DNA from: Mustelus asterias
Taxonomy: Eukaryota
DNA length: 64,000 nucleotides
Assembly (NCBI RefSeq): GCF_964213995.1
Contig: NW_027590138.1
Location: 930,001-994,000, forward strand
Reading direction: 5' to 3'
The position numbers were made by a program, and so were the translations under genes. Positions 7,767-62,525 of this stretch are shown here, piece after piece; within the stretch, counting starts at the first letter, position 1, and each line of letters opens with the position of its first letter. Below the pieces are notes generated by a model. The model was given only the letters and a program-made list of their open reading frames with translations. It made no database searches and was not told the DNA's origin.

Positions 7767-8600
7767 TCATAGAATCCTTACAGTGCAGAAAGAGGCCATT
7801 CGATTAATCGAGTCTGTACTGCAACGGCAACAATATATTCTGCACCCTACTCTTTTCCTTTCCCCCTATGTACTCGATCAATTTACTTTTTTTCTGTACA
7901 GCACGCAAGAAATAATACTTTTCACCGTATCCCAGAACATGCGACAATAATAAATCAAATTAGACACTACATATCTTGGACACCAAGGGACAAATTTACC
8001 TAACCTGCACATCTTTGGGCTATGAGAAAAAAACCGGAGCACCCAGAGGAAATGCACACAGAGGGAGATTGTGCAAACTCCACACATGAGGTGGAGATGC
8101 CAGCGCTGAACTGGGGTGAGCACAGTAAGTAGTCTCAAAATACAAGGTTAAAGACCAACAGGTTTATTTAGAACCACAAGCTTTCAGAGCGCTGATGAAG
8201 GAGCAGTGCTCTGAAAGCTCGTGATTCCAAATAACCAAGAGAAAATGCTGCAAAATCTCAGTAGGTTTGGCAACATCTGTAAGGAGAGAAAAGAACTGAC
8301 ATTTCGAGTCCAGATGACTCTTTGTCAAAGCTTTGATAAAGGGTGATGTGGACTCGAAGCATCAGTTCTTTTCTCTCCTTACAGATCCTGCCATATCTGC
8401 TGAGATTTTCCAGCAATTTCTCTTTTGGTTTCAAATTCCAGCATCCACAATAATTTACTTTGATTCCAAATAAACTTATTGGACTTTAACTTGGTGTTAT
8501 GAGACTTCTTCCTGAGCAAACTCCACACAGACAGTCACCCACCGCTCGAATCGAACTCTGACTCAGTGAGGCAGCAGTGCTGACCACTGTGCCACAGTGA
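7767..8600 (-). mobile_element. HE1-like V-SINE containing nested Rex1 tail (~7820-7960) and Penelope-derived palindromes (8087-8515)
   Basis: SINE tail at 7767 and head at ~8600. TSD gcaaactccacaca at 8073-8086 and 8516-8529. Confidence 0.75.
8087..8515. mobile_element. Self-inverted Penelope family A pLTR mini-element with a nested family B palindrome (8235-8460)
   Basis: Minus-strand pLTR arm 8087-8190, plus-strand arm from CTGATGA at 8192. Inner element has a 13-bp TSD tgattccaaataa at 8222-8234 and 8461-8473 and is centred on tttgtcaaag|ctttgataaa at 8330/8331. Confidence 0.8.
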
Positions 8601-8791
8601 TGGTAGTTTGCCGCAAATTTCGGGTGATAACAATGGGCTGGATGTTGCTCAGAATGTGGAGCACTGCAGCAAAGTACAGAGAGACAGAGACAGAGCAGCA
8701 GACTGGACTAAGAAATGGAGTCTGCAGACTGGAACTGGCAGCATGAGGAGAGGTTATTTAGTCTAACACTCACAGCAATCTACAACCCACC

Positions 8792-10130
8792 CCCATTACC
8801 GAGACAGTGAGACAGAGATTACAAACACTCACCAACACAGCTCCACTGAAACGTCCGAGGAAAAAGAGGGAACCTGTGGCAGTTCCTGTCCTGAAATAGC
8901 CCCAGGACTGTCACTCAAACCCCCAACCCGGCCCAGTTCACAGCTCAGCCTCTCAGCTTGCAGCTTCCTACACCTTGAGCCAACCCTGTCCAGGTGTGGG
9001 AGGGATGTGGAACCACAGAGTGGGGGGAGGGGTGACCACCTGCTGTGCCCCAAATAGTTTCTCCTTCCCCTCCCCCTTGGCTCTCTAAGGTCTGAATGTG
9101 GATGTGTTGATGGACATTGCAGAGCCTCACTGAGCTTATCCTGGGTCACCCCCTCCCCCTGGGTTCAGTGTGTTCAGTTCGCTGCTTCTTTCCCTGCTGA
9201 ACCTTCAGTTAATCAAAAACAGAAAGTGCTGGAAAACCTCAGCAGGTCTGATCGCATCTGTGATCATCCAGACTGGAAGCATTAACTCCATTCTCTCTCC
9301 ACAGATGCTGTCAGACCTGCTGAGATTTTCCAGCATTTTCTGTTTCAGATTCCAGCATCCGCGGTATTTTGCTTTTATCTTCATTTAAACACGCATTCTT
9401 TGATGGCCTTTACCCTCCGTGCTCCTTTCCAGAGCTTCCCACCTTCTGCTATTGTCCCTGACTCCCACATTAACCCTGTCATTCCTTCCCTTTATCCCGC
9501 TCACATCCCGCTCGAAACTCAGCCTCAGAGTTTTAGCGCCATCTCCCCCTCCCCCAGTCCCCACATCCCAACACCCGGAATCTCCAGCCCAGCGGTTCCA
9601 GTTTGTCTGGTTTGAGTTCAGATTTGCCGCAGCACCGACAGGATTTCACTTCAAACCAGCCGGAACTGACTGCTCACAAATCCCTAAATGTTTCTCCAGC
9701 AGCCCGGGCTTGTTAACGTTGTTTAAAGTCAGCGCCCAAATGCAGTTACTTTCCTCAGTTTAAAAAACTTCTCCGTTTAATCCAAAGTATTATTCGCACC
9801 AGACATAAACACAAAATTGTGAACGTTACCCACCGCCCCCAACTCCCCCGCCCCTCCCCCTCCTCCCCCCCAACGAGACCCGAGCTGGGGTGTCCCGAGG
9901 AAGAGACATCTGTTTCGGGTGTGACAATTCTTCCACATTCTCTGGTTGACATCAAACGGAAAACGCTGGAAATTGCCTCCATTACCGAGACAGTGAGACA
10001 GAGATTACAAACACTCACCAACACAGCTCCAGTGAAATGTCCCAGGGAAAAGGGGGAATCTGTGGCTGTTCCTGTCCTGATATCGCCCCAGGACTGTCAC
10101 TCAAAACCTCAACCCGGCCCAGTTCACAGC
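8792..10130. repeat. ~150-bp direct repeat (8792-8945 and 9980-10130)
   Basis: ccattaccgagacagtgagacagagattacaaacactcaccaacacagctcc...cccggcccagttcacagc occurs twice. Confidence 0.85.
9212..9385. mobile_element. Penelope family B pLTR, inverted pair
   Basis: tgctggaaaacctcagcaggtctga followed by its reverse complement tcagacctgctgagattttccagca. Confidence 0.7.
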
Positions 10131-10139
10131 AAATTGCTG

Positions 10140-10320
10140 CTTTTGTCAAAAGGGTCACTTGGACTCGAAACGTCAGCTCTTTTTGTCTCCTTACAGATGC
10201 TGCCAGACCTGCTGAGATTTTCCAGCGTTTTCTCTTTTGGCTGGAAATACTCAACAAGTCAGGCAGCCTCTGTGGAGAGAGAAACAGACTGAATGTGACC
10301 TGTCATCGGAACTGGGAAAT
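10140..10320. mobile_element. Penelope family B pLTR fragments in opposite orientations
   Basis: gggtcacttggactcgaaacgtcagctc...gacctgctgagattttccagc then an inverted degenerate arm. Confidence 0.65.
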
Positions 10321-10336
10321 ATATTATTTCCCGCAA

Positions 10337-12045
10337 CTGAGCTGCTTAATGAATACTTTACCTCGGTATTCACGGTGGAAAGGGATCTGGGTGGTTGTAC
10401 TGCTGGATTGCGGAGGACAGAAAGGATCGAGCATGTGGACATAAAGAAAGAGGATGTGTTGGAACTATTGAATGGCATCAAGGTTGGTAAGTCGCCGGGA
10501 CCGGATGGGATGTACCCCAGGTTACTGTGGGAGGCGAGGGAGGAGATTGCGGAGCCTTTGGCGATGATCTTTGCATCGTCGATGGAGACGGGAGAGGTTC
10601 CGGAGGATTGGAGGATTGCGGATGTGGTCCCTATATTCAAGAAAGGGAACAGGGACAGCCCGGGAAATTACCGACCGGTGAGTCTAACCTCAGTGGTTGG
10701 TAAGTTGATGGAGAGGATCCTGAGAGACAGGATTTATGATCATCTAGAGAAGTTTAGTATGATCAAAAGTAGTCAGCACGGCTTTGTCAGGGGCAGGTCG
10801 TGCCTTACGAGCCTGGTTGAGTTCTTTGAAAATGTGACCAAGCACATTGACGAAGGAAGAGCGGTGGATGTGGTCTATATGGACTTCAGCAAAGCGTTCG
10901 ATAAGGTCCCCCATGCAAGACTTCTTGAGAAAGTGAGAGGGCATGGGATCCAAGGGGCTGTTGCCTTGTGGATCCAGAACTGGCTTGCCTGCAGAAGGCA
11001 GAGAGTGGCTGTGGAGGGGTCTTTCTCTGCATGGAGGTCAGTGACCAGTGGAGTGCCCCAGGGATCTGTTCTGGGACCCTTGCTGTTTGTCATTTTCATA
11101 AATGACCTGGATGAGGAAGTGGAGGGATGGGTTGGTAAGTTTGCTGACGACACCAAGGTAGGTGGTGTTGTGGATAGTTTGGAGGGATGTCAGAAGTTGC
11201 AGCGAGACATAGATAGAATGCAAGACTGGGCGGAGAAGTGGCAGATGGACTTCAACCCGGATAAGTGTGTAGTGATCCATTTTGGCAGATCCAATGGGAT
11301 GGAGCAGCAGTATAAAATGAAGGGTACCATTCTTAGCAGTGTAGAGGATCAGAAGGACCTTGGGGTCCGGGTCCATAGGACTCTTAAATCGGCCTCGCAG
11401 GTGGAGGATGCGGTCAAGAAGGCGTATGGCGTACTAGCCTTCATTAATCGAGGGATTGAGTTTAGGAGTCGGGAGATAATGCTGCAGCTTTATAGGACCC
11501 TGGTTAGACCCCACTTGGAGTACTGCGCGCAGTTCTGGTCACCTCATTACAGGAAAGATGTTGAAGCCATTGAAAGGGTGCAGAGGAGATTTACAAGGAT
11601 GTTGCCTGGATTGGGGGGCATGCCTTATGAGGATAGGTTGAGGGAGCTTGGTCTCTTCTCCCTGGAGAGACGAAGGATGAGAGGTGACCTGATAGAGGTT
11701 TACAAGATGTTGAGGGGTCTGGATAGGGTGGACTCTCAGAGGCTATTTCCAAGGGCTGAAATGGTTGCTACGAGAGGACACAGGTTTAAGGTGCTGGGGG
11801 GTAGGTACAGGGGGGATGTCAGGGGTAAGTTTTTCACTCAGAGGGTGGTGGGTGAGTGGAATCGGCTGACGTCGGTGGTGGTGGAGGCAAACTCGTTGGG
11901 GTCTTTTAAGAGACTTCTGGATGAGTACATGGGATTTAATGGGATTGAGGGCTATAGATAGGCCTAGAGGTGGGAATGTGATCGGCGCAACTTGTGGGCC
12001 GAAGGGCCTGTTTGTGCTGTGGCTTTCTATGTTCTATGTTCTATG
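10337..12045 (+). mobile_element. Young 5'-truncated CR1 LINE with an uninterrupted ORF2 RT domain
   Basis: Open frame with PGPDG, YRPVSLTS, QHGF, DFSKAFD, GVPQGSVLGP, FADD motifs to the stop at 11961; (ttctatg)n tail. The N-terminal ~30 aa of the track ORF come from flanking DNA. Confidence 0.95.
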
Positions 12046-12049
12046 AAAG

Positions 12050-12395
12050 AGACACTTTACAGCCTTCAGAACAAAACTGAGCTCAACAATTTTACACCAC
12101 AATCTCTCCCCCCATTGTGTTCTGTGTTTCGTTGCTGCTTTTTTCACCTCATTTCCCACTTGTTTTCTTTACTTTACATTCAGACTATCGCTCACCAGCT
12201 ATTCACACCTCATCCAGAACATCTTTTGTATCTTTATTTGTCCCATTACCACTCGCTTTGGTCTTGGGCCGTGAAACATTTTGTCAGTTTGCAGATCTTT
12301 CATTTTGTTCTTCTCCACCTCCCTTTCTCAATTCTTCAGAGGTCAGTCTTTGACAAAGGGTCATCTGGACTCGAAACGTCAGCACTTTTCTCTCC
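12050..12395 (+). mobile_element. Penelope family B 3' end with hammerhead motif
   Basis: Degenerate TLQPS...NNF ORF end, pyrimidine-rich 3' region, TTGACAA-A-GGGTC-atctg-GACTC-GAAA-CG-TC at 12350-12380. Confidence 0.65.
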
Positions 12396-12419
12396 TGACA
12401 AATGCCCGTGACCACTGAA

Positions 12420-12880
12420 GTGCGTCATGGGCATTCAGCCTCTGATCTTTGGGTAAACATTCTCCAAGGCGGCCTTCAGGACACACGACAGCGCAGAGTC
12501 GCTGAGCAGAAACTGATAGCCAAGTTCCGCACACATGAGGACGGCCTAAACCGGGATGTTGGCTTGATGTCACACTATCAGTAACCCCCACAGCTTGCCT
12601 CCTGGACTTGCTGGTTGTCCTGTCTGGAGACAATACGAATCTCTTTAACCTGTGCTTAATGCTCCCTCCACTCACATTGTCTGTATCTTTAAGAACTGGT
12701 TGGCTGTAGAGATTTGCATTCTAATCAGTATTCTGTAACTTGATTTTGTGTCTCTGTGCACTGTTTGAGAGCAGATTTCCACTCCATCTGACGAAGGAGC
12801 AGCGCTCCAAAAGCTAATGGTATTTGCTATCAAATAAACCTGTTGGACTTTAACCTGGTGTTGTTAAAACTGTTACTCTA
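12420..12880 (+). mobile_element. Penelope family A 3' fragment (GIY-YIG endonuclease C-terminus plus pLTR)
   Basis: HGHSASDL...RRVAEQKLIAKFRTHEDGLNRD*; hammerhead-like CTGACGA at 12788 with GAAA mutated to AAAA; AATAAA. Confidence 0.8.
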
Positions 12881-12938
12881 AATATATCCCCATCGCTCTG
12901 GGTGGGAGTGGAATTGATGATTTCTTGACTGTCTGTCT

Positions 12939-13189
12939 GCACTGCTGCCTCACAGTGCCAGGGACCCGGGTTCAATTCCCAGCTTGGGTCACTGTCTGTG
13001 TGGAGTCTGTACGTTCTCCCCGTGTCTGTGTGGGTTCCCTCCGGGTGCTCCAGTTTCCTCCCACCGTCTGAAAGATGCGCTATTGAGGTGCATTGACCCA
13101 AACAGGTGCTGGAGTGTGGCGACTCGGGGAATTTCACAGTAACTTCATTGCAGTGTTAATGTAAGCCTTACTTGTGACTAATAAATAAA
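12939..13189 (+). mobile_element. V-SINE variant with non-CR1 (Rex1-like) tail
   Basis: Same head and V-core as HE1-like SINEs, but ends tttcacagtaacttcattgcagtgttaatgtaagccttacttgtgactaataaataaa. Confidence 0.8.
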
Positions 13190-13218
13190 TTTAACTTTTA
13201 ACTTTAATTTTGTGAACT

Positions 13219-13546
13219 CATAGAATCGTAGAATCTTACAGTGCAGAAGAAGGCCATTCAGCCCATCGAGTCTGCACCAACCACAATCCCACCCAGGCCC
13301 TATCCCCGTAACTCCACATATTTAACCTGCTAATCCTCCTGACACTAGGGTCAATTTAGCATGGCCAGTCAACCTAAGCAGCACATCTTTGGACTGTGGG
13401 AGGAAACCGGAGCACCCGGAGGAAACCCACGCAGACACAGGGAGAATATGCAGACTCTGCACAGACAATGACCCAAGCCAGGAATTGAACTCAGGTACGT
13501 GGCGCTGTGAGGCAGTAGTGCTAACCGCTGTGCCACCATGCCGCCC
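13219..13546 (-). mobile_element. HE1-like V-SINE, full length
   Basis: tRNA head, V-core and CR1-type tail on the minus strand. Confidence 0.9.
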
Positions 13547-14135
13547 TAATCTCCTTGAACAAATAGTAAATTGTAGAGATTATAAAGTTTGAATTGTAAT
13601 ATCTAATGGTGTAAAGTATCTGGGAGCAGAGTGGATGTGATAAAGGCTGGAATACAGACTGTGGGAATGAGGGTGAAACTGCTGTGCTCAGTGAATGGTT
13701 CTTATTGGAGGGAGGGATGTAGCGGGATCTTCCTTGTTACTCCACTTACAGGCCGATGTTTGAGGGTCTGCCGATAGCTGTGAGTGTCTCTCTCTTACAG
13801 GCCTTGAAATTTCAAAGGCTGGGGAATGCTGCACTGGGGCAAGTCCACAGGAGAGAGCGCTGAACCAGGCTCACCGTTTATACCTGACCGGTAACCTGAT
13901 ACTTATATCACACAGCCATCCCAAAACCGCCACCAAAGCCTGAGTGATTCTCTCCCTTGTCGGTGGGACAACGGCCACCCTGCACCCACTCCACTCGAGT
14001 AGGTCTCCAAGAGAGAGAACAGAGAGACTCTGTTCTTTATCTCCTGACCAGCAGTCTCCTTTGAGTGAGCGGGTTCGAATCACTCAGATCACCCTCGGTT
14101 CCAGACTCCGGATTTATGGTAAGGGATATTGAAAC

Positions 14136-15172
14136 TGTGACCTCGTCAGAGTGCACTGATGAGAGAACAAGAGGCAAGACGGACTCCAAACGAGTTTCAA
14201 AACTTACAGTGATTTATTTAATAATAAAATCAACCTCTTCAATACCCCACCACACAGGAATAAAACTTATACTTTATACTGCACTATGGGAGAAATGCTA
14301 ATGGGTACAACGTATTACTGAAGTTTAAAATTACAATACACCACCCCTCCCCTTGCCTCAACCTCTATCCTATCCTCGGGAGCTTCACAAGGTTGGCTGG
14401 GATACTCACAATTCTAAAAGGGGTTCCTTTGTGGTCGGCTCAAATGTCTTAGTGCAGGGTCGAAACTGAAGAGAGCTTGGTCCTGCTTGTCTGTGTCACT
14501 GCTTGTGATTCTGGAAGAGAGCTTGGTCCTGCTTGTCTGTGTCACTGCTTGCGATTCTGGAAGAGAGCTTGGTCCTGCTTGTCTGTGTCCCTGCTTGCGA
14601 TTCTGGAAGAGAGCTTGGTCCTGCTTGTCTGTGTCCCTGCTTGCGATTCTGGAAGAGAGCTTGGTCCTGCTTGTCTGTGTCCCTGCTTGTGATTCTGGAA
14701 GAGAGCTTGGTCCTGCTTGTCTGTGTCCCTGCTTGTGATTCTGGAAGAGAGCTTGGTTCTGCTTGTTTGACTCTCAGCTCAATTTGACAAAAACACCTTC
14801 CCTGCCCCCGTAGGTGATTTTCAAGGACAATGGGGCTTTCGATCACCGGCAGTTTCAGTTTAATTTAGTCAAGTCCACACACAAAAGGCTGGAACTGCCG
14901 TGAACCCCCGTGGGTCGTTATTTCAATGTCTTCTGTGGATGGGCCGATTTCTGTGGCCATTGACTCCCTGCTGGTCTGTTTACTGTCCTTTGTCCTTCTG
15001 ATGATTCGATCACTGGTGCGTCTGCCTTTTTGGCCACTTGCATATTCAGGGGGCTCTCACCTTTTTTTCTCTTAGCACAGTCCACCGACAGGTTATGTTT
15101 GTCCTGCCGAACCTTCTGGGAGGTTTTTATCAGCCAGCAGCCAGAGTTGGCCACTTTTAAACTGCTACGACA
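14136..15172 (-). mobile_element. Possible solo LTR containing a minisatellite
   Basis: TG...CA termini and a minus-strand AATAAA ~80 bp from the end; no TSD or PBS found. Confidence 0.35.
14468..14768. repeat. 46-bp minisatellite, ~6.5 copies
   Basis: Unit gaagagagcttggtcctgcttgtctgtgtc(a/c)ctgcttg(c/t)gattctg, period 46. Confidence 0.95.
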
Positions 15173-15177
15173 ACGGA

Positions 15178-15367
15178 TCATAGAAATCATAGAAACCCGA
15201 CAGTGCAGAAGGAGGCCATTCGGCCCATCGAGTCTGCACCGACCACAATCCCACCCAGGCCCTACCCCCACATATTTACCCACTAATCCCTCTAACCTAC
15301 ACATCTCAGGACTCTAAGGGGCAATTTTTAACCTGGCCAATCAACCTAACCCGCACGTCTTTGGACT
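15178..15367 (-). mobile_element. HE1-like V-SINE 3' half
   Basis: catagaaatcatagaaacc...cacgtctttggact, cut by the Penelope copy that follows. Confidence 0.8.
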
Positions 15368-15369
15368 TT

Positions 15370-15978
15370 GGATGAATGAACACCGCTCGACAATCATCAG
15401 GCAAGACTGTTCTCTTCCTGTGGGGGAGCACTTCAGCAGTCACGGGCATTCAGCCTTGGATCTTCAGGTAAGCGTTCTCCAAGGCGGCCTTCACGACACA
15501 CGACAGCGCAGAGTCGCTGAGCAGAAACTGATAGCCAAGTTCCGCACACATGAGGACGGCCACAACCGGGATGTTGGATTTATGTCACATCATCAGTAAC
15601 CCCCACAGCTTGCCCCCTGGACTTGCAGAATCTCACTAGCTGTTCTGTCTGGAGACAATACACATCTCTTTAACCTGTGTTTGATGCTCCCTCCACCCAC
15701 ATTGTCTGTACCTTTAAGACCTGGCTGGTTGTAGGGATTCGCATTCTAATCAGTATTCTGTAACTTGATTTTGTGTCTCTGTGCCCTGTTTGAGAGCAGA
15801 TTTCCACTCCATCTGACGAAGGAGCAGCGCTCCGAAAGCTTATGGTATTTGCTACCAAATAAACTTGTTGGACTTTAACCTGGTGTTGTGAGACTTCTTA
15901 CAGGAGGGGAAACAGCAGCAGTGCAGTCTGCGCAAAAGCTGTGTTCAGCCCAGTCCAATGCCGGCATCTCCACATCAC
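15370..15978 (+). mobile_element. Penelope family A 3' fragment with intact hammerhead motif
   Basis: MNEHRSTI...LPVGEHFSSHGHS...EQKLIAKFRTHEDG GIY-YIG end; pLTR ending gccggcatctccacatca. Confidence 0.85.
15809..15845 (+). ncRNA. Minimal type I hammerhead ribozyme motif (Penelope pLTR)
   Basis: CCAT-CTGACGA-A-GGAGC-agc-GCTCC-GAAA-gc-TT-ATGG: stem I, core, stem II and palindromic minimal stem III. Confidence 0.7.
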
Positions 15979-16064
15979 TTTTAAACTGTCAGGTTTCTCC
16001 TGAGTCGGGTACACCTGTTCGGGTACACTGAGGGAGAATTCAGCATGGCCAATGCACCTAACCA

Positions 16065-16163
16065 TAATGGTATTTGCTACCAAATAAAGCTGTTGGACTT
16101 TAACCTGGTGTTGTGAGACCTCTTACCGTGTTCACCCCAGTCCAACGCTGGCATCTCCACATC
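16065..16163 (+). mobile_element. Penelope family A terminal pLTR fragment
   Basis: taatggtatttgctaccaaataaa...agtccaacgctggcatctccacatca. Confidence 0.8.
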
Positions 16164-16321
16164 ATCCCCTCCTGTCCACCAGAGGTCGCTGTAGGCCTCC
16201 CAGCTGCTGCTCCTCCCAGTGTCACCTCTTGCCCACTCCAGCCCCTCCAGTACACCTCACTGGAGCCCCAGGCCATTCTTGCCATCCTGCCAGGTCTCGG
16301 GTACTGAGGCCAGTAGTAAAG

Positions 16322-16606
16322 TTTATTTATGAGTCACAAGTAGGTTTACATTCACACTGTAATGAAGTTACTGTGAAAATCCCCGAGTCGCCACACTCCG
16401 GCACCTGTTCGGGTACACTGAGGGAGAATTCAGCTTGGCCAATGCACCTAACCAGCACATCTTTTGGACTGTGGGAGGAAACCGGAGCACCCGGAGGAAA
16501 TCCACAGACACGGGGAAAATGTGCACAGTGACCCAAGCCGGGAATCAAATCCAAATCCCTGGCACTGTGAGGCAGCAGTGCGAACCACTGGGCCACTGTA
16601 CCGCCC
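16322..16606 (-). mobile_element. V-SINE variant (Rex1-like tail)
   Basis: Reverse complement of the 12939 type. Confidence 0.8.
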
Positions 16607-17238: not shown

Positions 17239-17535
17239 GGGCTGCACGGTGGAACAGTGGTTAGCACTGCTGCCTGACAGCAGTGGGTTTCTGTGTACGT
17301 TCTCCCTGTGTCTGAGTTCCCTCTGGGTGCTTCCGTTTCCTCCTACATTCCAAAGATGTGCAGGTTAGGTGGATTGGCCATGTTAAATTATCTGTTAGCG
17401 TCCAAAGATGTGTACGTTAGGGGGTTAGCAGGGTAAATGCACAACGGTACAGGGCCCATCGAGTCTGCACCGACTCTCCAACAGAGCATCTTACCCAGGC
17501 CCTATCCCCGTAGCCCCACATATTCATCCTGCTAT
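17239..17535. mobile_element. V-SINE fragments joined in opposite orientation
   Basis: Plus-strand head and core to ~17452, then a minus-strand tail segment. Confidence 0.6.
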
Positions 17536-26917: not shown

Positions 26918-27217
26918 CACAGCTTGCCTCCTGGACTTGCAGAATCTCACTGGCTGTCCTGTCTGGAGACAATACACATCTCTTTAACCTGTGCTTAATG
27001 CTCCCTCCACTCACATTGTCTGTATCTTTAAGACCTGGTTGGCTGTAGAGATTCGCAATCTAATCAGTATTCTGAAACTTGATTTTGTGTCTCTGTGCCC
27101 TGTTTGAGAGCACATTTCCACTCCATCTGATGAAGGAGTAGTACTCTGAAAGCTAATGGCATTTGCTACCAAATAAACCTGTTGGACCTTAACCTGGTGT
27201 TGTTAAAACTCTTACTG
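26918..27217 (+). mobile_element. Penelope family A pLTR with hammerhead motif at 27123-27159
   Basis: CCAT-CTGATGA-A-GGAGT-agt-ACTCT-GAAA-gc-TA-ATGG. Confidence 0.8.
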
Positions 27218-31859: not shown

Positions 31860-32810
31860 TGTCTGACATCCAGCACTGGATTAACAAAGATTTCCTCTAT
31901 TTAAATATTGGGAAGATTAAGACCCGACTACAAACTCTACTCCATACCCACTGACTCCATCCCTCTCCCTGACAACAGTTTGAGGCTGAACCAGACTGTT
32001 TGCAACGATCGAAAATTATTTCACTGAAATAAAAGCAAAAACTGAAATAAAAACAGAAGATGCTGCATAAACTCAGCAGGTCTGGCAGCATCTGTGGAGA
32101 AAGAAACAGAGTTAATGTTCTGAGTCCCTATAACTCTTCTTCAGAGCTGCCAGCTGAGTTTCTGACCATTTATCTCTGCCACCTCCAAGAATGAGTTTCT
32201 ATCTCATAGAAACCCTACAGTGCCGAAGGAGGCCATTCAGCCCATCAAGTCTGCACTGACAACAATCCCACCTCGGCCCATCCCCGTAACCCCACATATT
32301 TACCCCAATAATCCCTCTAACCTACGCACCCCAGGACACTAAAGGGCAATTTAGCATGGAAAATCAACCTAATCCACACCTCTGGACTGTGGGAGGAAAC
32401 CGGAGCACCCGGAGGAAACCCATGCAGACACAGGGAGAATGTGCAAATTTCACACAGACAGTCACCCAAGTCGGGAACTGAACCCAGGTCCCTAGAGATG
32501 TGAGGCAACGGCGCTAACCACTGTGCCACCGTGCCACCCTAAATCTAATTCCCATCACTCGACTTGGTCCAAATACATGTTCCTGAAACTCTCGTTCATT
32601 CATTTATAACCTCTAGACTTGATGATTTTTCACATCCTGACCAGCCTCCATTCAAGCTGTGATAAACTAGAGTTCATCCAAATCTCTGCACTGAATCTCA
32701 ATGACTCACTGACTTACACAGGCTCCCGTTTGAGCAGCAACTCAGTTCAAAATTCTCATCTTTCTTTTCAAATCCCTCCATGACATTGCTTTTCCCCATT
32801 TCCAGTCTCA
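31860..32810 (+). mobile_element. Old L2 LINE fragment, interrupted by a Penelope B pLTR (32030-32150, minus) and a V-SINE (32205-32540, minus)
   Basis: LSDIQHWINKDFLYLNIGK resembles the L2 RT C-terminal motif. Confidence 0.55.
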
Positions 32811-38128: not shown

Positions 38129-39011
38129 GTTTTGAGAAGGAGAAGATTTGCAGACAGAAATCTCAAAACCAAACGTCACGTCAAGACCTGACACATTCAC
38201 TCAATTCAAAGGGACCTGAATATCATTGGTCTTTCAGTCTAGAATTGAATTGAAGTATGTACAGATGGAGGGCATTGATTGGATCATTATATGAGTGTGT
38301 ATGAAGAAAGCGTGTATAAAGAAATGGTGTTCTGTCTGCTTCAGAAGGTTCTAATGATGTGGAGATGCCGGCGTTGGACTGGGGTAAACACAGTAAGAAG
38401 TTTAACAACACCAGGTTAAAGTCCAACAGGTTTATTGGGTAGCAAAAGCCACACAAGCTTTCGGAGCTCCAAGCCCCTTCTTCAGGTGAGTCACCGCAGT
38501 CACACCAGGAAGAGGCTGTTCACCTGCGCTGAGTGTGGGGAGGGATTCACACGGTCATCTCATTTGCTGACACACCAGCAAGTTCACACTGGGGATGGGC
38601 CATTCACCTGATCCGTGTGTGGGAAGGGATTCACTCAGTCATCCAACCTGCTGACACACCAGTGAATTCACAACAGGGAGATGCCATTCACCTGCTCCTT
38701 GGGAAAGATTCACTGAGTCATCCAGTCAGCTGAAATACCAATGTGGTCACACTGGTGAGAGGCCACTGACCTGCTCTGAGTGTGGGAAGGAATCCGCTCA
38801 GTTATCCAACTTGCTGATGCACCAATGTATTCATACTGGAGAGAGACCATTAATGTGTTGTGTGTGTGAGAAGAGATTCATTGATTCATCCAATCTGCTG
38901 TGACACCAGCAAGTCCACATTGAGGAGAGGCCATTCCCCTGCTTTGAGTTCAGGGAAAGTTTAAATCAGTCATCCAACTTGCTGACACACCAGCAGGTTC
39001 ACACCGATTAG
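38129..39011 (+). pseudogene. C2H2 ZNF pseudogene P1
   Basis: Acceptor ttttacAG at 38127-38128; finger units with several stops and deletions; Penelope insertion at 38354-38490. Confidence 0.8.
38354..38490 (-). mobile_element. Penelope family A pLTR with intact hammerhead motif (38452-38488)
   Basis: Minus strand CAC-CTGAAGA-A-GGGGC-ttgga-GCTCC-GAAA-gc-TT-GTG. Confidence 0.8.
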
Positions 39012-42704: not shown

Positions 42705-42706
42705 TT

Positions 42707-46264: not shown

Positions 46265-47598
46265 GGTTTGAGTCTGTGTGTGAAGTTTGAGTCTGTGTGT
46301 GAAGTTTGAGTCTGTGGTGAAGTTTGAGTCTGTAGTGAAGTTTGAGTCTGTGGTGAAGTTTGAGTCTGTGGTGAAGTTTGAGTCTGTGGTGAAGTTTGAG
46401 TCTGTGTGTGAAGTTTGAGTCTGTGTGTGAAGTTTGAGTCTGTGGTGAAGTTTGAGTCTGTGTGTGAAGTTTGAGTCTGTGGTGAAGTTTGAGTCTGTGG
46501 TGAAGTTTGAGTCTGTGGTGAAGTTTGAGTCTGTGGTGAAGTTTGAGTCTGTGGTGAAGTTTGAGTCTGTGTGTGAAGTTTGAGTCTGTGTGTGAAGTTT
46601 GAGTCTGTGGTGAAGTTTGAGTCTGTGGTGAAGTTTGAGTCTGTGTGTGAAGTTTGAGTCTGTGTGTGAAGTTTGAGTCTGTGGTGAAGTTTGAGTCTGT
46701 GTGTGAAGTTTGAGTCTGTGGTGAAGTTTGAGTCTGTGTGTGAAGTTTGAGTCTGTGTGTGAAGTTTGAGTCTGTGTGTGAAGTTTGAGTCTGTGGTGAA
46801 GTTTGAGTCTGTGGTGAAGTTTGAGTCTGTGTGTGAAGTTTGAGTCTGTGGTGAAGTTTGAGTCTGTGTGTGAAGTTTGAGTCTGTGTGTGAAGTTTGAG
46901 TCTGTGTGTGAAGTTTGGGTCTGTGTGTGAAGTTTGAGTCTGTGTGTGAAGTTTGAGTCTGTGTGTGAAGTTTGAGTCTGTGGTGAAGTTTGAGTCTGTG
47001 GTGAAGTTTGAGTCTGTGTGTGAAGTTTGAGTCTGTGTGTGAAGTTTGAGTCTGTGGTGAAGTTTGAGTCTGTGGTGAAGTTTGAGTCTGTGTGTGAAGT
47101 TTGAGTCTGTGTGTGAAGTTTGAGTCTGTGGTGAAGTTTGAGTCTGTGTGTGAAGTTTGAGTCTGTGGTGAAGTTTGAGTCTGTGTGTGAAGTTTGAGTC
47201 TGTGTGTGAAGTTTGAGTCTGTGTGTGAAGTTTGAGTCTGTGTGTGAAGTTTGAGTCTGTGGTGAAGTTTGAGTCTGTGTGTGAAGTTTGAGTCTGTGGT
47301 GAAGTTTGAGTCTGTGTGTGAAGTTTGAGTCTGTGGTGAAGTTTGAGTCTGTGGTGAAGTTTGAGTCTGTGTGTGAAGTTTGAGTCTGTGTGTGAAGTTT
47401 GGGTCTGTGTGTGAAGTTTGAGTCTGTGGTGAAGTTGGAGTCTGTGGTGAAGTTTGAGTCTGTAGTGAAGTTTGAGTCTGTGGTGAAGTTTGAGTCTGTG
47501 TGTGAAGTTTGAGTCTGTGTGTGAAGTTTGAGTCTGTGTGTGAAGTTTGAGTCTGTGGTGAAGTTTGAGTCTGTGGTGAAGTTTGAGTCTGTGGTGAA
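46265..47598. repeat. 18/19-bp minisatellite, ~70 units
   Basis: gaagtttgagtctgtggt (18 bp) interspersed with gaagtttgagtctgtgtgt (19 bp). Confidence 0.98.
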
Positions 47599-47699
47599 GC
47601 TACAAACAGAAGCTGTTCTGTTTCAAATCAAACTGCGGGACTTGGAAGAAAATGATGGGAAGAGATTTTGCAAAGTCCCCTCCCCCACTCCCTCAGCTG

Positions 47700-52504: not shown

Positions 52505-52640
52505 AAGGCAAAATTCTGCTGTTGCTGGAATCTGAAACAGACACAGGAAATGCTGGACAATCTCAGCAAGTCTGACAGCATCTGTAAAGAGAGAATGGAG
52601 GCAACATTTGGAGTCAGGATGACCCTTTATCAGAGCTGAA
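52505..52640 (-). mobile_element. Penelope family B pLTR
   Basis: Minus strand ctgataaagggtcatcctgactc...cagatgctgtcagacttgctgag. Confidence 0.65.
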
Positions 52641-53450: not shown

Positions 53451-55912
53451 CATAGAACCATAGAAAATTACAGCTCAGAAACAGGCCTTTTGGCCCTTCT
53501 TGTCTGTGCCGAACCATTTTTTGCCTAGTCCCACTGACCTGCACTTGGACCATATCCCTCCACACCCCTCTCATCCATGAGCCCGTCCAAGTTTTTCTTG
53601 AATGTTAAAAGTTAAATGTTAAATTTACCACTTTATCCGGCAGCTCATTCCACACTGCCACCACTCTCTGCGGGAAGAAGCCCCCCCCTAATATTCCCTT
53701 TAAACTTTTCTTTCACTCTTAACCCATGCCCTCTGGTTTTTTTCTCCCCGAGCCTCAGCGGAAAAAGCCTGCTTGCATTCACTCTATCTATACCCGTCAA
53801 AATCTTATACACCTCTATCAAATCTCCCCTCAATCTTCTACGCTCCAGGGAATAAAGTCCCAACCCATTCAATCTCTTTCTGTAACTCAGCTTCTCAAGT
53901 CCCGGCAACATCCTTGTGAACCTTCTCTGCACTCTTTCAACCTTATTTACATCCTTCCTGTAACTAGGTGACCAAAACTGTACACAATACTCCAAATTCG
54001 GCCGCACCAATGCCTTGTATAACCTTACCATAACACTCCAACTTTTATACTCGATACTCCGATTTATAAAGGCCAATGTACCAAAGGCACTCTTTACGAC
54101 CCTATCCACCCTTGACGTCACTTTTAGGGAATTCTGTACCTGTATTCCCAGATCCCTCTGTTCAACTGCACTCTTCAGAGTCCTACCACTTACCCTGTAC
54201 GTTCTACTTTGGTTTGTCCTTCCAATGTGCAATATCTCACACTTGTCTGCGTTAAATTCCATTTGCCATTTTTCAGCCCATTTTTCTAGTTGGTCCAAAT
54301 CCCTCTGCAAGCTTTGAAAACCTTCCTCACTGTCCACTACACCTCCAATCTTTGTATCATCAGCAAACTTGCTGATCCAATTTACCACATTATCATCCAG
54401 ATCATTGATATAGATGACAAACAACAATGGACCCAACACCGATCCCTGCGGCACACCACTAGTCACAGGCCTCCACTCAGAGAAGCAATTCTCCACAACC
54501 ACTCTCTGGCTTCTTCCATTGAGCCGGCATCTCCACATCACGTTCTTCCATTGAGCCAGTGTCTAATCCAATTTACTACCTCCCCATGTATACCACGCGA
54601 CTGAACCTTCCTAACTAACCTCCCATGAGGGACCTTGTCAAAGGCCTTGCTGAAATCCAGGTAGACAACATCCACCGCCTTCCCTTCATCCACTTTCCTG
54701 GTAACCTCCTCGAAAAACTCTAATAGATTGGTCAAACATGACCTACCACGCACAAAGCCATGTTGACTCTCCCCAATAAGTCCCTGTCTATCCAAATATT
54801 TGTAGATCCTATCCCTTATCACACCTTCCAATAATTTGCCCACCGACGTCAAACTTACTGGCCTATAATTTCCCGGATTTCTTTTGGAACCTTTTTTAAA
54901 CAACGGAACAACATGAGCCACCCTCCAATCATCCGGCACCTCCCCCGTGAATACTGACATTTTAAATATGTCTGCCAGGGCCCCTGCAAGTTCAACACTA
55001 GCTTCCCTCAAGGTCCGTGGGAATACCCTGACCGGTCCTGGGGATTTATCCACTCTGATTTGCCTCAAGACAGCAAGCACTTCCTCCCCTTTAATCTGTA
55101 AAGGTTCCATGACCTCCCTACCAGTTTGCCCTATTTCCGTAGACTCCATGTCCGTTTCCTCAGTAAATACGGATGCAAAAAAACCATTTAGTATCTCCCC
55201 CATCTCTTTTGGTTCCATACACAGTCTACCACTCTGGTCTTCAAGAGGACCAATTTTATCCCTATCCTTTTGCTCCTAACATACCTATAGAAGCTCTTTG
55301 GATTTCCTTCACTCTGTCTGCCAAAGCAACCTCATGTCTTCTTTTAGCCCTCCTGATTTCCCTCTTAAGTAGCTTCTTGCACTTTTTATACTCCTCGAGC
55401 ATCTGATGTGTTCCTTGCTGCCTGTACATTTCATACAACTCTCTCTTCCTCTTAATCAGTGTTACAATCTCCCTCGAGAACCAAGGTTCCTTATTCCTAT
55501 TTACTTTGCCTTTAATCCTGACAGGAACATACAAACTCTGCACTCTCAAAATTTCTCCTTTGAAGGCCTCCCACTTTCCATTTACATCCTTACCAGAGAA
55601 CAGCCTGTGCCAATCCACACTTCCCAGATCCCTTCTCATTTATCAAATTTGGCCTTTTTCCAGTTCAGAGCTTCAACCCGAGGACCAGATCTATCCTTAT
55701 CCACGATCAGGTTGAAACTAATGGCATTATGATCACTGGATCCAAAGTGTTCCCTCACACTCACATCCATCACCTGCCCTAACTCATTTCCCAATAGGAG
55801 ATCCAATATCGCATCCTCTCTAGTTGGCACCTCTATATACTGATGCAGAAAATTCTCCTGAACACATTTTACAAACTCTACCCCGTCTAAACCTTTAACA
55901 GTATGCGAGTCC
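53451..55912 (-). mobile_element. CR1 LINE ~2.5 kb (APE endonuclease C-terminus, linker, RT), frameshifted
   Basis: PTREDAILDLLL...SDHN, PGP, YRPVSLTS, GVPQGSVLGP, FADD; catagaaccatagaa tail. Confidence 0.95.
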
Positions 55913-56204
55913 CTTCTTACAAGTTTAAAAAACTTCCCTAAGAACAAAACAAACTTGATGTTAAACTGCATCCATTAATTTTTTTGTTCTATTCATCAAC
56001 CTAATTATTTTAATTTGATCAGTTATTGTGAGGGATGATTAACTTCTGTTCTTTATAAACTGGTTCACTCATTTTGTTAATTCTACATGGGCTCGAGAAT
56101 CAGAACCCAGACTTTATCATCCTTATTTTTTCTCCCTTTGCCACCACTCCCTCTGTTTTGCGGGAGGGTCGTGGGGATTCCAATCAGAACTAATCAAATT
56201 ATCA

Positions 56205-56372
56205 TAAAAGTAAAATACTGCGGATGCTGGAATCTGAAACGAAAACAGAAAATGCTGGAAGATCTCAGCAGGTCTGACAGCATCTTTGGAGAGAGAATAG
56301 AGCCAATGTTTTGAGTCTGGATGAGCTTCTTACAAAGTGTCATCCAGAATCGAAACGTTGTTTCTATTCTCT
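56205..56372. mobile_element. Penelope family B pLTR, inverted pair
   Basis: Minus arm to gagtctggatga, then plus arm tcatccagaatcgaaacgttg. Confidence 0.7.
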
Positions 56373-57758
56373 AATCATTTTATCGATAAGCTTCTTGTTC
56401 TTAGTTTCCAAATGGCAGGTAAGAGACCTGTCCGGTCCCCACTCGAGCTCTGATTTTTCACTGGCCATGCGTGGATAGGATTATAACTGTTAGAATCTAC
56501 TCTCAGAGATCTGCTTTTCAGACCAGTGCTACTTGGAGAATACCATCACTTCACCAAATATCGGGTCACAAGTCCCTCACAGTTCTTATCACAAATTGAC
56601 GATAGGTTAAGCAATGCCTCAGAACGCTTTTTAACTTCTTAACCAACTACCTACCACTGTTTGTTGATTGGTCGGACCCCTTTTTTACAGATTCAGGTCT
56701 CTCAGCCGCTGAACACCAGCCGGTCCTGGAATAAGTTTCATTTGAACTCATTCTGAGTCAATATTCTCACCAGGTCCTCTGTTGGGACCCTGCTAAGCAG
56801 CTTTAATGGTCCATGATTGCAGAAACTGAGAAGTTACAGGAATGTGGTCAAGATAGTCCAGTCCCATAATGCCTCACATTCAATCTGCTGTCCTTCAATT
56901 ATAACAGAATATGTGGCTGTATGTAGCTGCCTCGGCCATGGTCAACCCCAACACTGCCTTCCTGAACTGCTTCAATGCCTGAGGTGTAAGTACACCCACA
57001 GTGCTGTTAGAGAGGGAGAATGTAGATGGATACCAGATTGATATATTCCATTCAACCACACCCAAGATGAGTTATTCCAATTTCTTTATTGTCCAGGACA
57101 ATATATTCACAATATCTTTAAAACAGAAATTAAACATTCCCATTTGATTTCAGGTAGTAACATATTCTGTTAGTTTGTTCTTTATTGTCAATGTCAGGCT
57201 GGGGTTGTTCCCCTTGGAGCAAAGGAGGTTGAGGGGAGATTTGATAGAGGTGACAAGATTCTGACAGGTTTAGATAAGGTGGACAAAGAAAAGCTGTTCC
57301 CATTAGCTGATGGGACAAGGATGAGGGGGAGACAGATTTAAGGTTTTGGATCAGAGATGCAGTTGAGGGGGGGGGGTGATGTGAGGAAGAATATTTTGAT
57401 GCAGCGAATGGTAATGACCTGGAACTCGCTGCCTACGAGGGTGGAGGAAGTGGAGACAATAAACAATTACAAAGGAAATTGGATGGGCGTTTGGGGGGTT
57501 TCAAACAGAAATGCTGCCTAAATATCTCTGAACTTCCTCACACCCTGTCACTCTGTGATCCTTGTGAAATTTGAAACCAGGTATTCGCAACAAGACTCAA
57601 GGAGCATCAGCCCACTGGAGGCAAAGTTGTGAGACCGACCAGTCCAACAGAAAGAAACCCTCCGACCCTCCCCATTGACCAACTGTGAGAATGAACAAAA
57701 TGCAGTCCTGGGTGTAATTGAGAGCAGAAACAGTAACAGCAGAATCCAACCTCTGGAA

Positions 57759-58349
57759 TCACTCGTGAACTTGTTGGTGTCTCAGCAGGTGGGATGAAAC
57801 TCTGAATCTCTTCCCACACACAGAGCAGGTGAATGGCCTCTCCCCAGTGTGAACTCGCTGGTGTGTGCAGAGGTTTGAGAGGTCAGTGAATCCCTTCCCA
57901 CACTGAGAGCACATAAATGGTTTCTCCCCAGTGTGAACTCGCTCGTGTGTCCGCAGACTGGATAACTGAGTGAATCCATTCCCACACTGAGAGCAGGTAA
58001 ATGGTCTCTCCCCAGTGTGAACTCGCTGGTGTCTTCGCAGGCCTGATGAATTACTGAATCCCTTCCCACACTGAGAACAAGTGAATGGTCTGTCCCCAGT
58101 GTGAACTCGCTGGTGAGTCCGCAGGTTGGATGACTGAGTGAATCCCTGCCCACACTGAGAGCAGGTGAACGGTCTCTCCCCAGTGTGAACTCGCTGGTGT
58201 CTTTGCTGGCCGGATGAATCACTGAATCCCTCTCCACACTGAGAGCAGGTGAACGGCCTCTCCCCCGTATGGCTGCGCCAATGCGCTTCGAGCTCAGATG
58301 GGTATCCGTATCTTTTCCCACAGTCCGCACACTTCCATGGTTTCTCCAT
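57759..58349 (-). CDS. C2H2 zinc-finger protein ZNF-G (7 fingers), close paralog of ZNF-A
   Basis: accATGG MEKPWKC at 58349, acceptor at 58699-58700, same HE* terminus and upstream region as ZNF-A. Confidence 0.85.
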
Positions 58350-58834
58350 GGTGCAGGTGTCCTTGCCGCTCTCTTGGGTGGACAATTAGTTGAAACTTTG
58401 TCCACACACACAACACGGGTACAGTCTCTCCCCGCTGTGAATGGTGTGATATTTATTCAGGCTGTGTGACTGGTTAAAGCTCTTTAGTCAGTGCACTGGA
58501 ACACTCTCACTCGAGTGTGGCAGTGTGTTGCTGCTTTTCCAGTCACACTGATGTTTGAAATCTTTTCAAATCAACAGACCGGACAATCATTTCTCCTTCT
58601 AGATTCAAAGTCCGATGATATTCAGCTCCCAAGGAATATGACTGTCAGATCTAGACGTGACGTTTGAGATTTCAGCCTGTGATTCCTCTTTCAATATCCT
58701 GTAAAATGAGTTTACAAAAGTCATCAGTGTCAGTACAGGATAGAAATTCAGAACAGACAATTTCTATGGAACATTCTTTCCTCTCTCATTCCCCAAAAGC
58801 TGTAAATCTCCATCCCACACACTCTCTCCCCATT

Positions 58835-59020
58835 CTCAGCAGGTCTGGCAGCATCTGGATGGAGAGAAAAGAACTGATGTTTCAGAGCTTTGACAAAGGG
58901 TCATCGAGACAAGAAACATCAGCTCTTTTCTCTCCTTACAGATGCTGCCAGACCTGCTGAGATTTTCCAGCATTTTCTCTCTTGGTTTCAGATTCCAGCA
59001 TCCGCAGTAATTTGCTTTTA
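58835..59020. mobile_element. Self-inverted Penelope family B mini-element with hammerhead motif
   Basis: GAGCT-TTGACAA-A-gggtc...GAAA-ca-TC-AGCTC at 58885-58925; inverted arm upstream. Confidence 0.75.
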
Positions 59021-60740
59021 TAAGGCTGCAGATACCTCCTCCCAAGTAACATGCGTGTGCCCAAGACATCATCACTTGTTTCCCTTATTTCTTTAGCACC
59101 CATGGTGCTCTCCGCAGTAAACACAGAGGAGAAGTATTCATTAAAAATCTCACCCATCTCCTGTGTCTCCACACACAGATGGCCATACTGATTTTTAAGG
59201 GGATCTATTCTCTCTCTAGCCACCCTTTTACTCTTAATATAGCTATAGAACCTCTTGGAATTTTCTTTAATCTTTAAACCCAATGTATGCTTCCTTCTTT
59301 TACCTGACCAGAGCCTCAATGTCCCTTGTCTGCCAGAGATCCCTAAATTTACCATTCTTTCCCTGCATCTTAACAGGAATATACTGCCCTGGATTCTTGA
59401 TATCACACTTTTAAAACCTTCCATTTGCCAGTCATTCCTTTCCCTTCAAACAAACTCACCTAATCAACATCTGCTCGATCCTGCCTAATGCCCACAAAAG
59501 TGGCCCTGCTCATCCATCCTCTGGATTACCTCTTCGGAAAACAATAAAAGATTTGTCAGACATGACTTCCCGTGCACAAAGCGGTGCTGACTATCCCTAA
59601 TCACACCGTCAGAATCCAAATGTTGGTAGATTCTGTCCTTCACAATCCCCTCCAGTAACTTACCCACCACTGATGTCAGACTACCGGCCTATAATTCTCA
59701 GGCTTCTCTTTGCTACGCTTCTTAAACAACAGAACAACATTAACATGTTCTATTCTTCCAGAACTTCACCAGGAGAAAGAGATGAAACAAATATCTCTGC
59801 AAGGGGCTCTGTAATTCCTTCCTGAGCCTCCCACAAGATCTGAAGATATAATTGATCAGACCCAGGGGATTTATCCACCTTAATGCACTTTAAGGCTGCA
59901 GATACCTCCTCCCGAGTAATATGCATGTGGTCCAAGACATCACAGCTTCTTTCTCTTATTTCTTCAGCATCCATCATGTTCTCCTCAGGAAACACCAAGG
60001 AGAAATATTCATTAAAAATCGCACCCATCTCCTGTGACTCCATCCTCAGATAGCCATGCTGATTTTTAAGGGGACCTATTCTCTCTCTCTCTAGCCACCC
60101 TTTTACTCTTAATATCGCGATAGAACCTCTTGGGATTTTCATAGAATCCATACAGTGCAGAAAGAGGCCATTTGGCCCATCGAATCTGCACCGACCACAA
60201 TCCCACCCAGGCCCTACCCCCATATCCCGACATATTTACCCGCTAATTCCTCTAACCTACGCATCTCAGGACACTAAGGGGCAATTTTAGCATGGCCAAT
60301 CAACCTAACCCACACATCTTTGGACTGTGTTAAAGTTAAATTTTCTTTAACTTTACCTGCCAGATCCATATCATACCCTCTTAAGTGTTCTCTTACACTT
60401 TTAAGAGACATCGAGTGATTCACTTGTCCCCGATTGTCTAAACCCAATGTCTGCTTCCTTCTTTTACCTGACCAGAGCCTCAATGTCCCTTGTCAGCCAG
60501 GGATCCCTAAATTTACCATTCTTTCCCTTCATCCTGACAGGAATATACTGCCCCTGGACTCTTTATCACACTTTTAAAACCTCCCATTTGCCAGTCATTC
60601 CTTTCCCTTCAAACAAACCCACCTAATCGACATCTGCGAGATCCTGCCTAATGCCCACAAAAGTGGCCCTGCTCCAGTTTAGGGCCTTGACCTGTGGACC
60701 TGTCCTATCTTTTTCCTGAACTATTTTGAAACTATTGGTG
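59021..60740 (-). mobile_element. Old CR1 ORF2 fragments with an internal duplication and a nested V-SINE (60139-60328)
   Basis: 59021-59510 repeats 59890-60675 (taaggctgcagatacctcctccc...aaagtggccctgctc); EYFSSVF and KSPG motifs. Confidence 0.75.
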
Positions 60741-61282
60741 CTCCCAATAGTGCTCCACGACTGACACTTCAGTCACTTGCTCCACCTCATTTCTTAACTG
60801 TCTAATAGAAAGTGAGTCCAGGAATTGATAATGAAAAATAAGGAGCTGGGAGATGAATTGAACAAGTATTTTGCCTCGGTGTTCACAATAGAGGATACAG
60901 TTAAAACTCAGAAACAACTGGAAATCAGAAAACAGAAGTGTGGGATGAACTCTGAAAAAGCACAATTACCAGGGAAGTGGTCCTCAGCAAACTGTTGGAG
61001 CTGTGGGCTGATGAGTCCTCGGGTCCTGCTGGGCTTCATTCTCGAGTCTTAACAGAGTGAGATAGTTGATGTGTTGTTCAATTTTCTAAAATTCCCCATC
61101 GGGAATTGGATAAAGGGAAACCAGTGGATGCGCTGTACTTAGATTTCCAGAAGACATTTGATGAGGTGCCACATGAAATGTTATTGCAGCAAATAAAAAT
61201 TCATGCTGCGGGGATAACATATTGGCGTGGATAGAAGATTGGCTTACAGCAAACAGTGGGCAGAAATGGATCATTTTCTGGT

Positions 61283-62135
61283 TTAAGAGAGAGAGACCTG
61301 GGCCAACCTTTCCAGAGTCTGCACCCTCCCTGGATTCACTTCCTTTCCCTTCAGTTGCTGCAAGTCCCCAATTTCCCCCAGAATGAGAAAAGAAATGGAA
61401 AGGGGGAGAAAAGAAAGCGTTTTACTCACAGATATTAGCGACAGGAGGAAGTATCAGTCAGTCTGAAGGTCAATCTTCATTCACACAAAGCCTGCGCTCA
61501 GATTGGCCGGAAGACCAGAATCCTTCCGGTCCTCCAACTCTTCCCATTGGTCAACACCTCAGCATGAAGATCAGAGGGTGGGTTCTCCCCTGCACATGCG
61601 CAGCTTCCCCTCTCCCTCGCACATGTGATGTCCTGGGCCAGGGGGAGGGGGAGCTCACCGAGCGGCTTCTCGTTCTGGCCGGAGCCGCCAGCCGGTTGCC
61701 TGGAAACCTTGACTCAAGGAGGTGTAAGGGGAGGGGAACAATGGATGGGGGCGGGGCTCCCGGGTCCGCGCGCCCGGGCCTGCGCACTGGAACCCGGAGA
61801 CATCACCGCGGAGCAGAGTGACTCCTATTGGCTGATTCAGGCAGGGCTCCATTGTGACGTCACAATGCAGAAGTTGGCCAATGAGCTTCAGAGTGAAACT
61901 CCCTCCTCTGGACAACATCTGGGAGGAAATCAATGTTTCCCCCTTTCCATTTCTTTTCTCATTCTGGGGGAAATTGGGGACTTGCAGCAACTGAAGGGAA
62001 TGAAGTGAATTTGGTCTGTATATTCCACACATTTTTACTCCAGTAATGTGGACATTTATCTGTCTGGCAGCTGGCATGGAAATTTTCAGCTCTCTGCCTC
62101 CAGGGCAGGAAGCAGTGAGCATGGATCTGTCAATC
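61283..62135. promoter_or_regulatory. Bidirectional promoter (type III): first exon of ZNF-G (minus) and an orphan plus-strand ZNF 5' end
   Basis: Minus donor GTGAGT at 61429; inverted copies of the same intron-start module at ~61330-61415 and 61935-62010; palindrome attgtgacgtcacaat. Confidence 0.7.
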
Positions 62136-62525
62136 ACACATGAGGATGGCCTCAACCGGGATCTTGGGACATGTCACACTATCTGTAACCCCCACAACTT
62201 GCCTGGGCTTGCAAAATCTCACTAACTGTCCTAGTTGGAGACAATACACATCTCTTTAACCTGTGCTTAACCCTCTCTCCACTCACATTGTCTGTACCTT
62301 TAAGACTTGATTACCTGTAAAGACTCGCATTCCAACCATTATCTTGAAAATTGAGTTTGTGTCTTTAGATGCCCTGTTTGTGAACAGAACTCCCACTCAC
62401 CTGATGAAGGAGCAGCGCTCCGAAAGCCTGTGGGTTATGCTACCAAATTAACCTGTTGGATTTTAACCTGGTGTTGTGAGACTTCTTACTGTGCTTACCC
62501 CAGTCCAACGCAGGCATCTCCACAC
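62136..62525 (+). mobile_element. Penelope family A 3' fragment with hammerhead motif (62398-62432)
   Basis: THEDGLNRDLG..SHY*; CAC-CTGATGA-A-GGAGC-agc-GCTCC-GAAA-gc-CT-GTG. Confidence 0.8.

Follow-up and report, generated by a model that had tools for sequence, protein, structure and literature searches.

The genome of the shark Mustelus asterias contains two very common families of Penelope-like elements (PLEs), here called A and B, whose copies are scattered through a 64,000-nt stretch of contig NW_027590138.1 (positions 930,001 to 994,000, assembly GCF_964213995.1; hereafter the window). In our reading, to which we assign a probability of about 0.8, both families carry type I minimal hammerhead ribozymes in their 3' pseudo-long terminal repeats (pseudo-LTRs), the variant core pair U3:A8 was fixed once, in subfamily B2 of family B, likely under selection on the parent elements, and the scattered copies are decaying stubs. 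An earlier note on the window had named ten such motifs, six of family A and four of family B, and all ten exist in the sequence.

Both families are best described as 3' pseudo-LTRs of PLEs because they lie behind frames with a reverse transcriptase (RT) and a GIY-YIG endonuclease, which bears out the note's assignment of the motifs to PLE minimal hammerheads. Ribozymes of B2 and of its sister subfamily B1 are located about 400–450 nt downstream of a frame that runs from an RT through a cysteine linker to a GIY-YIG domain at its end, and the family A ribozyme is about 210 nt downstream of the end of its own endonuclease. Endonuclease pieces of both families were placed in the Atlas with GIY-YIG clusters at 0.96–0.97. 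The cysteine linker (CX2-5CxxC) between RT and GIY-YIG is seen in both families and is common to Neptune and Nematis PLEs (PMC8557442); by this linker, both would be of the Neptune type.

The motifs have the anatomy expected of minimal hammerheads. The type I core CUGANGA...GAAA...UH with a 3:8 pair is present, with C3:G8 in the parents of A and B1 and U3:A8 in that of B2; G10.1-C11.1 closes helix II, an extra base is found at 9a, helix I is short, and 15.2-16.2 is palindromic. The extra A after the core, described previously for both families, is indeed in both. Stem I of family B is a 4-bp AGCU/AGCU helix, and the leading G once included in it is a junction letter, the parent being U-rich ahead of the helix. 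Stem I of family A does covary: among 66 parsed copies, pair 2.1:1.1 is C-G 31 times and U-A 29 times, with the other 39 of the 105 tail-anchored copies left unparsed. Stem II pairs are also swapped between family A subfamilies, but GGAGT/ACTCT, which had been cited as a kept pairing, occurs in one of the 66 copies and is partly CpG decay. Across 85 distinct ribozymes of A and B, 3:8 is paired in 76 (48 U-A and 26 C-G), 15.2:16.2 swaps between C-G and G-C, and stems I, II, III and the 3:8 pair all have double changes, which count lineages and not independent events.

These structures are abundant and exceed chance. A strict descriptor required pairing in stems I and II, GAAA, a palindromic 15.2-16.2, and U16.1-H17 but left positions 3 and 8 free. 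It matched three places in the window (15813, 27127, and 38485, all family A) and 12 in a background set of 32 random 10-kb stretches (320 kb), with no matches in 10 shuffles of the window or 3 of the random set. At 3:8, these 15 matches are C:G in 12, U:A in two, and A:G in one. In the genome searched (3.68 Gb), exact patterns found 76,271 matches for family A, and one exact pattern found 10,176 for family B. An Rfam scan of the window gave no hammerhead among its 14 matches (E up to 1), as is expected because the motifs lack helix III; microRNA-like Rfam matches at 8275-8386 and 58835-58962 were rejected as inverted B2 pairs. The copies in the window and the associated features are as follows.

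8192..8224, plus strand: family A minimal hammerhead, stem I 5' strand lost at an inverted junction
8235..8461: head-to-head pair of B2 3' ends, centered on AGCT at 8329-8332, inserted into the family A copy at 8192, within its tail
8294..8332, minus strand: B2 hammerhead (U3:A8), CpG decay at position 15.2
8329..8367, plus strand: B2 hammerhead (U3:A8), A15.1G plus changes in 16.2 and stem II
10139..10178, plus strand: fifth B2 copy (core at 10143), absent from the earlier note; A6 changed, one extra A
12346..12384, plus strand: B2 hammerhead (U3:A8) with an intact core and intact stems II and III; stem I down to 2 bp
12784..12820, plus strand: family A, subfamily A1 (stem I CCAU/AUGG), G12A
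15372..15599, plus strand: C-terminal end of a family A endonuclease frame, ahead of the ribozyme at 15813; shares its C-terminus with frame L119, placed in the Atlas with GIY-YIG clusters
15809..15845, plus strand: family A1 hammerhead, matches the strict descriptor
27123..27159, plus strand: family A1 hammerhead, stem II letters copy-specific, matches the strict descriptor
38452..38488, minus strand: hammerhead of a family A subfamily whose stem II has 6 bp and whose stem I is CAC/GUG, matches the strict descriptor
52599..52637, minus strand: decayed copy of sister subfamily B1 (C3, G8A, G12C), absent from the earlier note
58886..58924, plus strand: B2 hammerhead (U3:A8), stem II base broken, decay at 16.2; forms the direct arm of a short inverted pair
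62398..62432, plus strand: family A hammerhead (CAC/GUG stem I), U16.1C

Position C3 of the six family A copies is at 8192, 12788, 15813, 27127, and 62401 on the plus strand and at 38485 on the minus strand; U3 of the four family B copies named earlier is at 8328 (minus), 8333, 12350, and 58890 (plus). Although every proposed site exists, three of the six family A copies are damaged (8192 by loss of a stem I strand, 12788 by G12A, and 62401 by U16.1C), as are all five B2 copies, in the core or in stem I, II, or III, the one at 10143 included. The head-to-head pair at 8235-8461 is flanked by a 12-bp target duplication (8223-8234 and 8462-8473). A decayed copy at 32105-32148 (minus) belongs to a further, older subfamily of the B clade with a C3:G8 core.

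Family B is composed of two sister subfamilies, an older B1 with C3:G8 and a younger B2 with U3:A8. The genome-wide matches fall into 5,838 with U3:A8, 2,704 with C3:G8, 1,042 with C3:A8, and 230 with U3:G8, with a purine at position 3 in the other 362. When copies are assigned by tail letters, which lie outside the ribozyme, 87 of 92 parsed B2 copies are UA (three UG, two CA), and 26 of 34 parsed B1 copies are CG (four CA, three UG, one GG), in sets whose loci were partly chosen on the core and from which 12 more copies were assigned to neither. B2 is the younger because its tails are less diverged (34/1440, 2.4%) than those of B1 (89/1350, 6.6%). In 30 long B2 copies, chosen by likeness of endonuclease and untranslated region, A8 is present in 29 and U3 is aligned in all 30, so the note was right that one lineage fixed the U3:A8 change. 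The correlation of U3 with A8 is likewise present across copies (odds ratio of 66), but it reflects subfamily linkage from a single event, and neutral loop and tail letters split alike. Because the 3:8 split follows the two subfamilies, U3:A8 represents one fixation in a parent and not covariation repeated among copies. The mixed classes CA and UG fit CpG and point decay without a mixed subfamily. In B1, C7-G8 is a CpG; about 40 of the 100 C3:G8 matches listed show the mirror change C7U, a rate at which about as many C3:A8 copies are expected as were found.

Among the matches listed, other families offer no second origin of the pair. The first 100 matches of family A all have C3, 95 with G8. 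A search for U3:A8 outside family B, with a pattern that required G10.1, C11.1, and the extra A, gave 469 matches; no other U3:A8 family was seen among the 100 listed, almost all of which are mutated B2 copies or double mutants that occur sporadically in family A. As judged from these matches, U3:A8 arose once in this genome. Contigs of organisms A–F span the B2 ribozyme and among the rows listed do not differ at positions 3 or 8, in two comparisons, one with 109 rows outside its listing and the other lacking differences visible in the first; this suggests that B2 is older than the split of these organisms. Organism B has a diverged B2 lineage with U17 for C17 and many other near-fixed differences, none listed at 3 or 8.

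Inserted copies and their parents have had different histories. In the 30 long B2 copies, 9 of 299 non-CpG core letters differ (3.0%), compared with 76 of 1948 letters in the downstream flank (3.9%; p = 0.52) and 247 of 4291 in the more variable upstream flank (5.8%; p = 0.049). CpG sites differ at 23%, and only 4 of the 30 ribozymes are intact. Inserted copies thus decay about neutrally, and any selection acted only on parent elements. Selection on the parent is likely because B1 and B2 share 33 of 39 letters in the ribozyme but only 10 of 22 in the adjacent spacer, and because none of the six ribozyme changes (U3, A8, two loop letters, N17, and a G-U to A-U) breaks a pair. The TATA box and tail share 7 of 8 and 87 of 95 letters, respectively. 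The note's argument from U3:A8 for selected activity rather than decay was overstated, since it can hold for the parents only. From the sequence comparisons, the hammerhead fold was likely under selection in active parents, and we infer that the A, B1, and B2 hammerheads would be catalytic.

The 5' ends of copies suggest where transcription starts. The B2 tail-only pattern has 11,070 matches in the genome, and the first 100 arms, all in the first 11.5 Mb of contig C1, were analyzed; a B1 set was mixed with B2 copies and was left out. In 48 of these arms the end is at −4 to −1 before U3, with 30 exactly on the first base of stem I (−4), and the others end further 3' (28), end 5–146 nt upstream (11), or extend beyond (13). 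A TATAAAT precedes the −4 A by 30 nt in B2 and the corresponding base by 29–32 nt in ten B1-like copies, and loose ends accumulate at the same B2 place in contigs of another organism. In family A2, 21 of 44 arms end 0–14 nt before C3 and none at 15–48, with a TATA-like box upstream. In rotifer PLEs, a TATA box plus initiator has been noted in a pseudo-LTR (PMC3846280). Transcription likely starts at stem I, which would place the ribozyme at the 5' tip of the transcript. No cleavage-site footprint is found in these genomic copies, as only one of the 100 B2 arms ends at the cleavage site.

The pile-up could instead mark a splice acceptor, a YAG after a pyrimidine tract, or a stop of the RT at the ribozyme, and of the alternatives this is the one we take most seriously, although we consider it unlikely. 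A pyrimidine tract with AG at −4/−3 is present in both B1 and B2, the intron of Drosophila virilis Penelope ends at the 5' end of helix I (PMC4209133), the promoter of that element is TATA-less (PMC2377424), and many junctions lie in palindromes, which favor microhomology joins. However, the non-inverted short copies listed have no upstream exon in common, ends that include the AG (the 30 at −4) outnumber starts after it (seven at −2), and family A2 shows its cluster of ends behind a TATA-like box without an AG there. Three unrelated head-to-head B2 insertions within 3.3 Mb (L302, L305, and L332, at 7.68, 7.84, and 10.99 Mb of C1) have a near-identical 19-nt spacer between arms. A spliced exon 1 was rejected as its source, since it has only four matches in the genome, one of them (L341) outside any PLE; local re-copying or gene conversion of the whole palindrome is possible.

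If transcription starts at stem I, a cycle can be proposed. A TATA promoter in the pseudo-LTR would start the RNA there, and full-length copying of the short pseudo-LTR transcript would yield stubs. The element protein may prime in the tail and copy uncut RNA, which appears to be the usual template for insertion, often on both strands to give head-to-head stubs such as 8235-8461. As the monomer would have no stable stem III, it is predicted to cut only as a double hammerhead of two RNAs joined through the 4-nt palindrome, probably aided by protein, and cutting would take about 35 nt off the 5' end. A start at the first base of the ribozyme, if confirmed, would mean that cleavage removes the capped 5' end of the element RNA, a concrete function.

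A more specific version is tentative, and we doubt it on balance: a TATA start on the first ribozyme base would make the hammerhead a 5'-terminal decapping switch, fired only when a dimeric element protein joins two RNAs, the two that also yield head-to-head insertions, with U3:A8 favored as a release from misfolding against C17/A1.1. That a C3:G8 core would misfold against the C17/A1.1 strand of B2 is a weak lead from folding predictions. In the 45-nt ribozyme, mean predicted probability of stem I is 0.70 for natural B2 and 0.19 with C3:G8; with the tail attached, the gap is nearly gone (0.25 versus 0.19). If this version were true, B1 and B2 would be a natural before-and-after pair on why PLEs keep ribozymes. 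U3 also turns the B2 core (e.g., 58888-58898) into an 11-nt near-palindrome, with a self-duplex of −7.1 kcal/mol versus −0.7 in B1, and some B2 inversions are centered on it.

Several observations weigh against our overall reading. Pfam matches for GIY-YIG (E of 3e-4 to 4e-4) and RVT_1 (E of 0.004) all fall below curated cut-offs, and the family A frame has no Pfam match. The 30 long B2 copies showed no intact open reading frame. Eight extended B loci, all broken and probably 5'-truncated, have no direct second hammerhead upstream, so the tandem layout for dimers in cis is not seen; one of the eight holds an inverted second copy. Conservation between B1 and B2 is higher in the tail than in the ribozyme. 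Of in silico B2 dimers, the double hammerhead is less stable than others (−15.9 versus −24.2 kcal/mol). An untemplated, cap-derived G is unsupported, as the letter ahead of non-inverted −4 ends is C in eight, G in four, and A in one.

The B2 motif could also be catalytically dead, if U3 and A8 drifted in the parent and hitchhiked while the hairpin was retained solely for protein binding or as a promoter-proximal structure. With C at position 7, G8A is easily gained as a CpG change, a single origin of the pair was found in this genome among the matches listed, ribozyme mutants leave in vitro insertion unaffected in Anolis (PMC11167929), and Naiad PLEs spread without canonical hammerheads (PMC8557442). 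Against these points, B1 and B2 differ in the core only at the paired positions 3 and 8, which two random picks among 11 core sites would hit in about 1 of 55 cases (an estimate that is higher with CpG bias); the CA and UG copies are explained without a mixed subfamily; and U3:A8 recurs in Schistosoma PLEs (PMC4209133) and is reported active in vitro (PMC3088659). We consider a dead motif improbable. It is highly implausible that the motifs are hairpins that arose by chance, or ribozymes domesticated by the host and under selection where they lie, despite one B2 copy (58870-58990) that is identical at 40 scored places: shuffles yield no strict-descriptor matches, the identical copies belong to an amplified zinc-finger gene unit and have a broken stem II, and copy cores decay like their flanks.

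The window lies in a zinc-finger gene cluster with fragments of long interspersed nuclear elements (LINEs). The 58890 B2 stub is part of a zinc-finger gene unit (57770-60490) whose neighbors match at 90–99.6%, and a 121-base segment around the stub shows 100% identity across all 40 scored places, mostly on small contigs; the cluster with this stub is recently amplified. Families A and B2 interrupt each other, with the B2 pair inside a family A tail (8223-8473) and family A sequence cutting a B2 tail at 12346-12420, which suggests overlapping periods of activity. A 581-aa open frame of a LINE reverse transcriptase, presumably CR1-like, is at 10216-11961 (minus), and a tandem array at 46266-47599 has 72 copies of a 19-bp unit with 96% match.

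Much of this biology has precedents. Pseudo-LTRs of metazoan PLEs carry minimal hammerheads with an extra base, a palindrome, and low activity as dimers (Cervera and De la Peña 2014, PMC4209133). About 1,300 U3-A8 hits are reported in Schistosoma mansoni, whose Cercyon elements carry the variant (PMC4209133). Perreault et al. 2011 (PMC3088659) state in vitro activity for natural U3-A8 cores, which have the same swap at 3:8, although the portions of that paper covered do not tie it to PLEs or vertebrates. The background given in the earlier note (minimal PLE hammerheads, a palindromic stem III, and the U3:A8 swap) is published (PMC4209133, PMC3088659), as is the extra A; the note claimed too much here, since PLEs were already described with all of these features (PMC4209133). 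The variant itself adds little because it is published and recurrent. No shark names occur in the two supplement files of PMC4209133 searched, and literature searches, which did not extend to Repbase and Dfam, found no shark-specific report of such hammerheads.

Two systems are close in some respects. The Anolis PLE Poseidon_Ac has a hammerhead that requires protein to cut and is dispensable for insertion in vitro (Frangieh et al. 2024, PMC11167929). Like the shark hammerheads, it lies in the pseudo-LTR ahead of an internal tail; reverse transcription begins in that tail and uses uncut RNA as template, as proposed here. In contrast, Poseidon_Ac is of the Poseidon clade, with C3:G8 and an open reading frame that starts inside stem II, and the frames here have the Neptune/Nematis-type cysteine linker. 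Non-LTR retrozymes likewise have PLE-derived type I hammerheads in short non-coding copies (bioRxiv 10.64898/2026.07.22.740005). Those are tandem arrays, whereas the copies here are solo or head-to-head stubs of coding PLEs: no head-to-tail hammerhead array, the hallmark of retrozymes, is found among 32 tandem rows in the window, and B2 arms are solo or inverted.

The closest likeness is to the hammerheads of PMC4209133, which also have no stable helix III, a palindromic 15.2-16.2, an extra base between 9 and 10.1, G10.1-C11.1, and a short helix I, in PLEs with thousands of solo or inverted copies and with U3-A8 families beside C3-G8 families. Stem II differs, with 5–6 bp here and 7–8 bp there. 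What is useful in Mustelus asterias is a single vertebrate genome with older C3:G8 and younger U3:A8 subfamilies in thousands of copies: unlike in the systems described in the parts of PMC4209133 covered, the C3:G8 sister subfamily survives beside the U3:A8 one.

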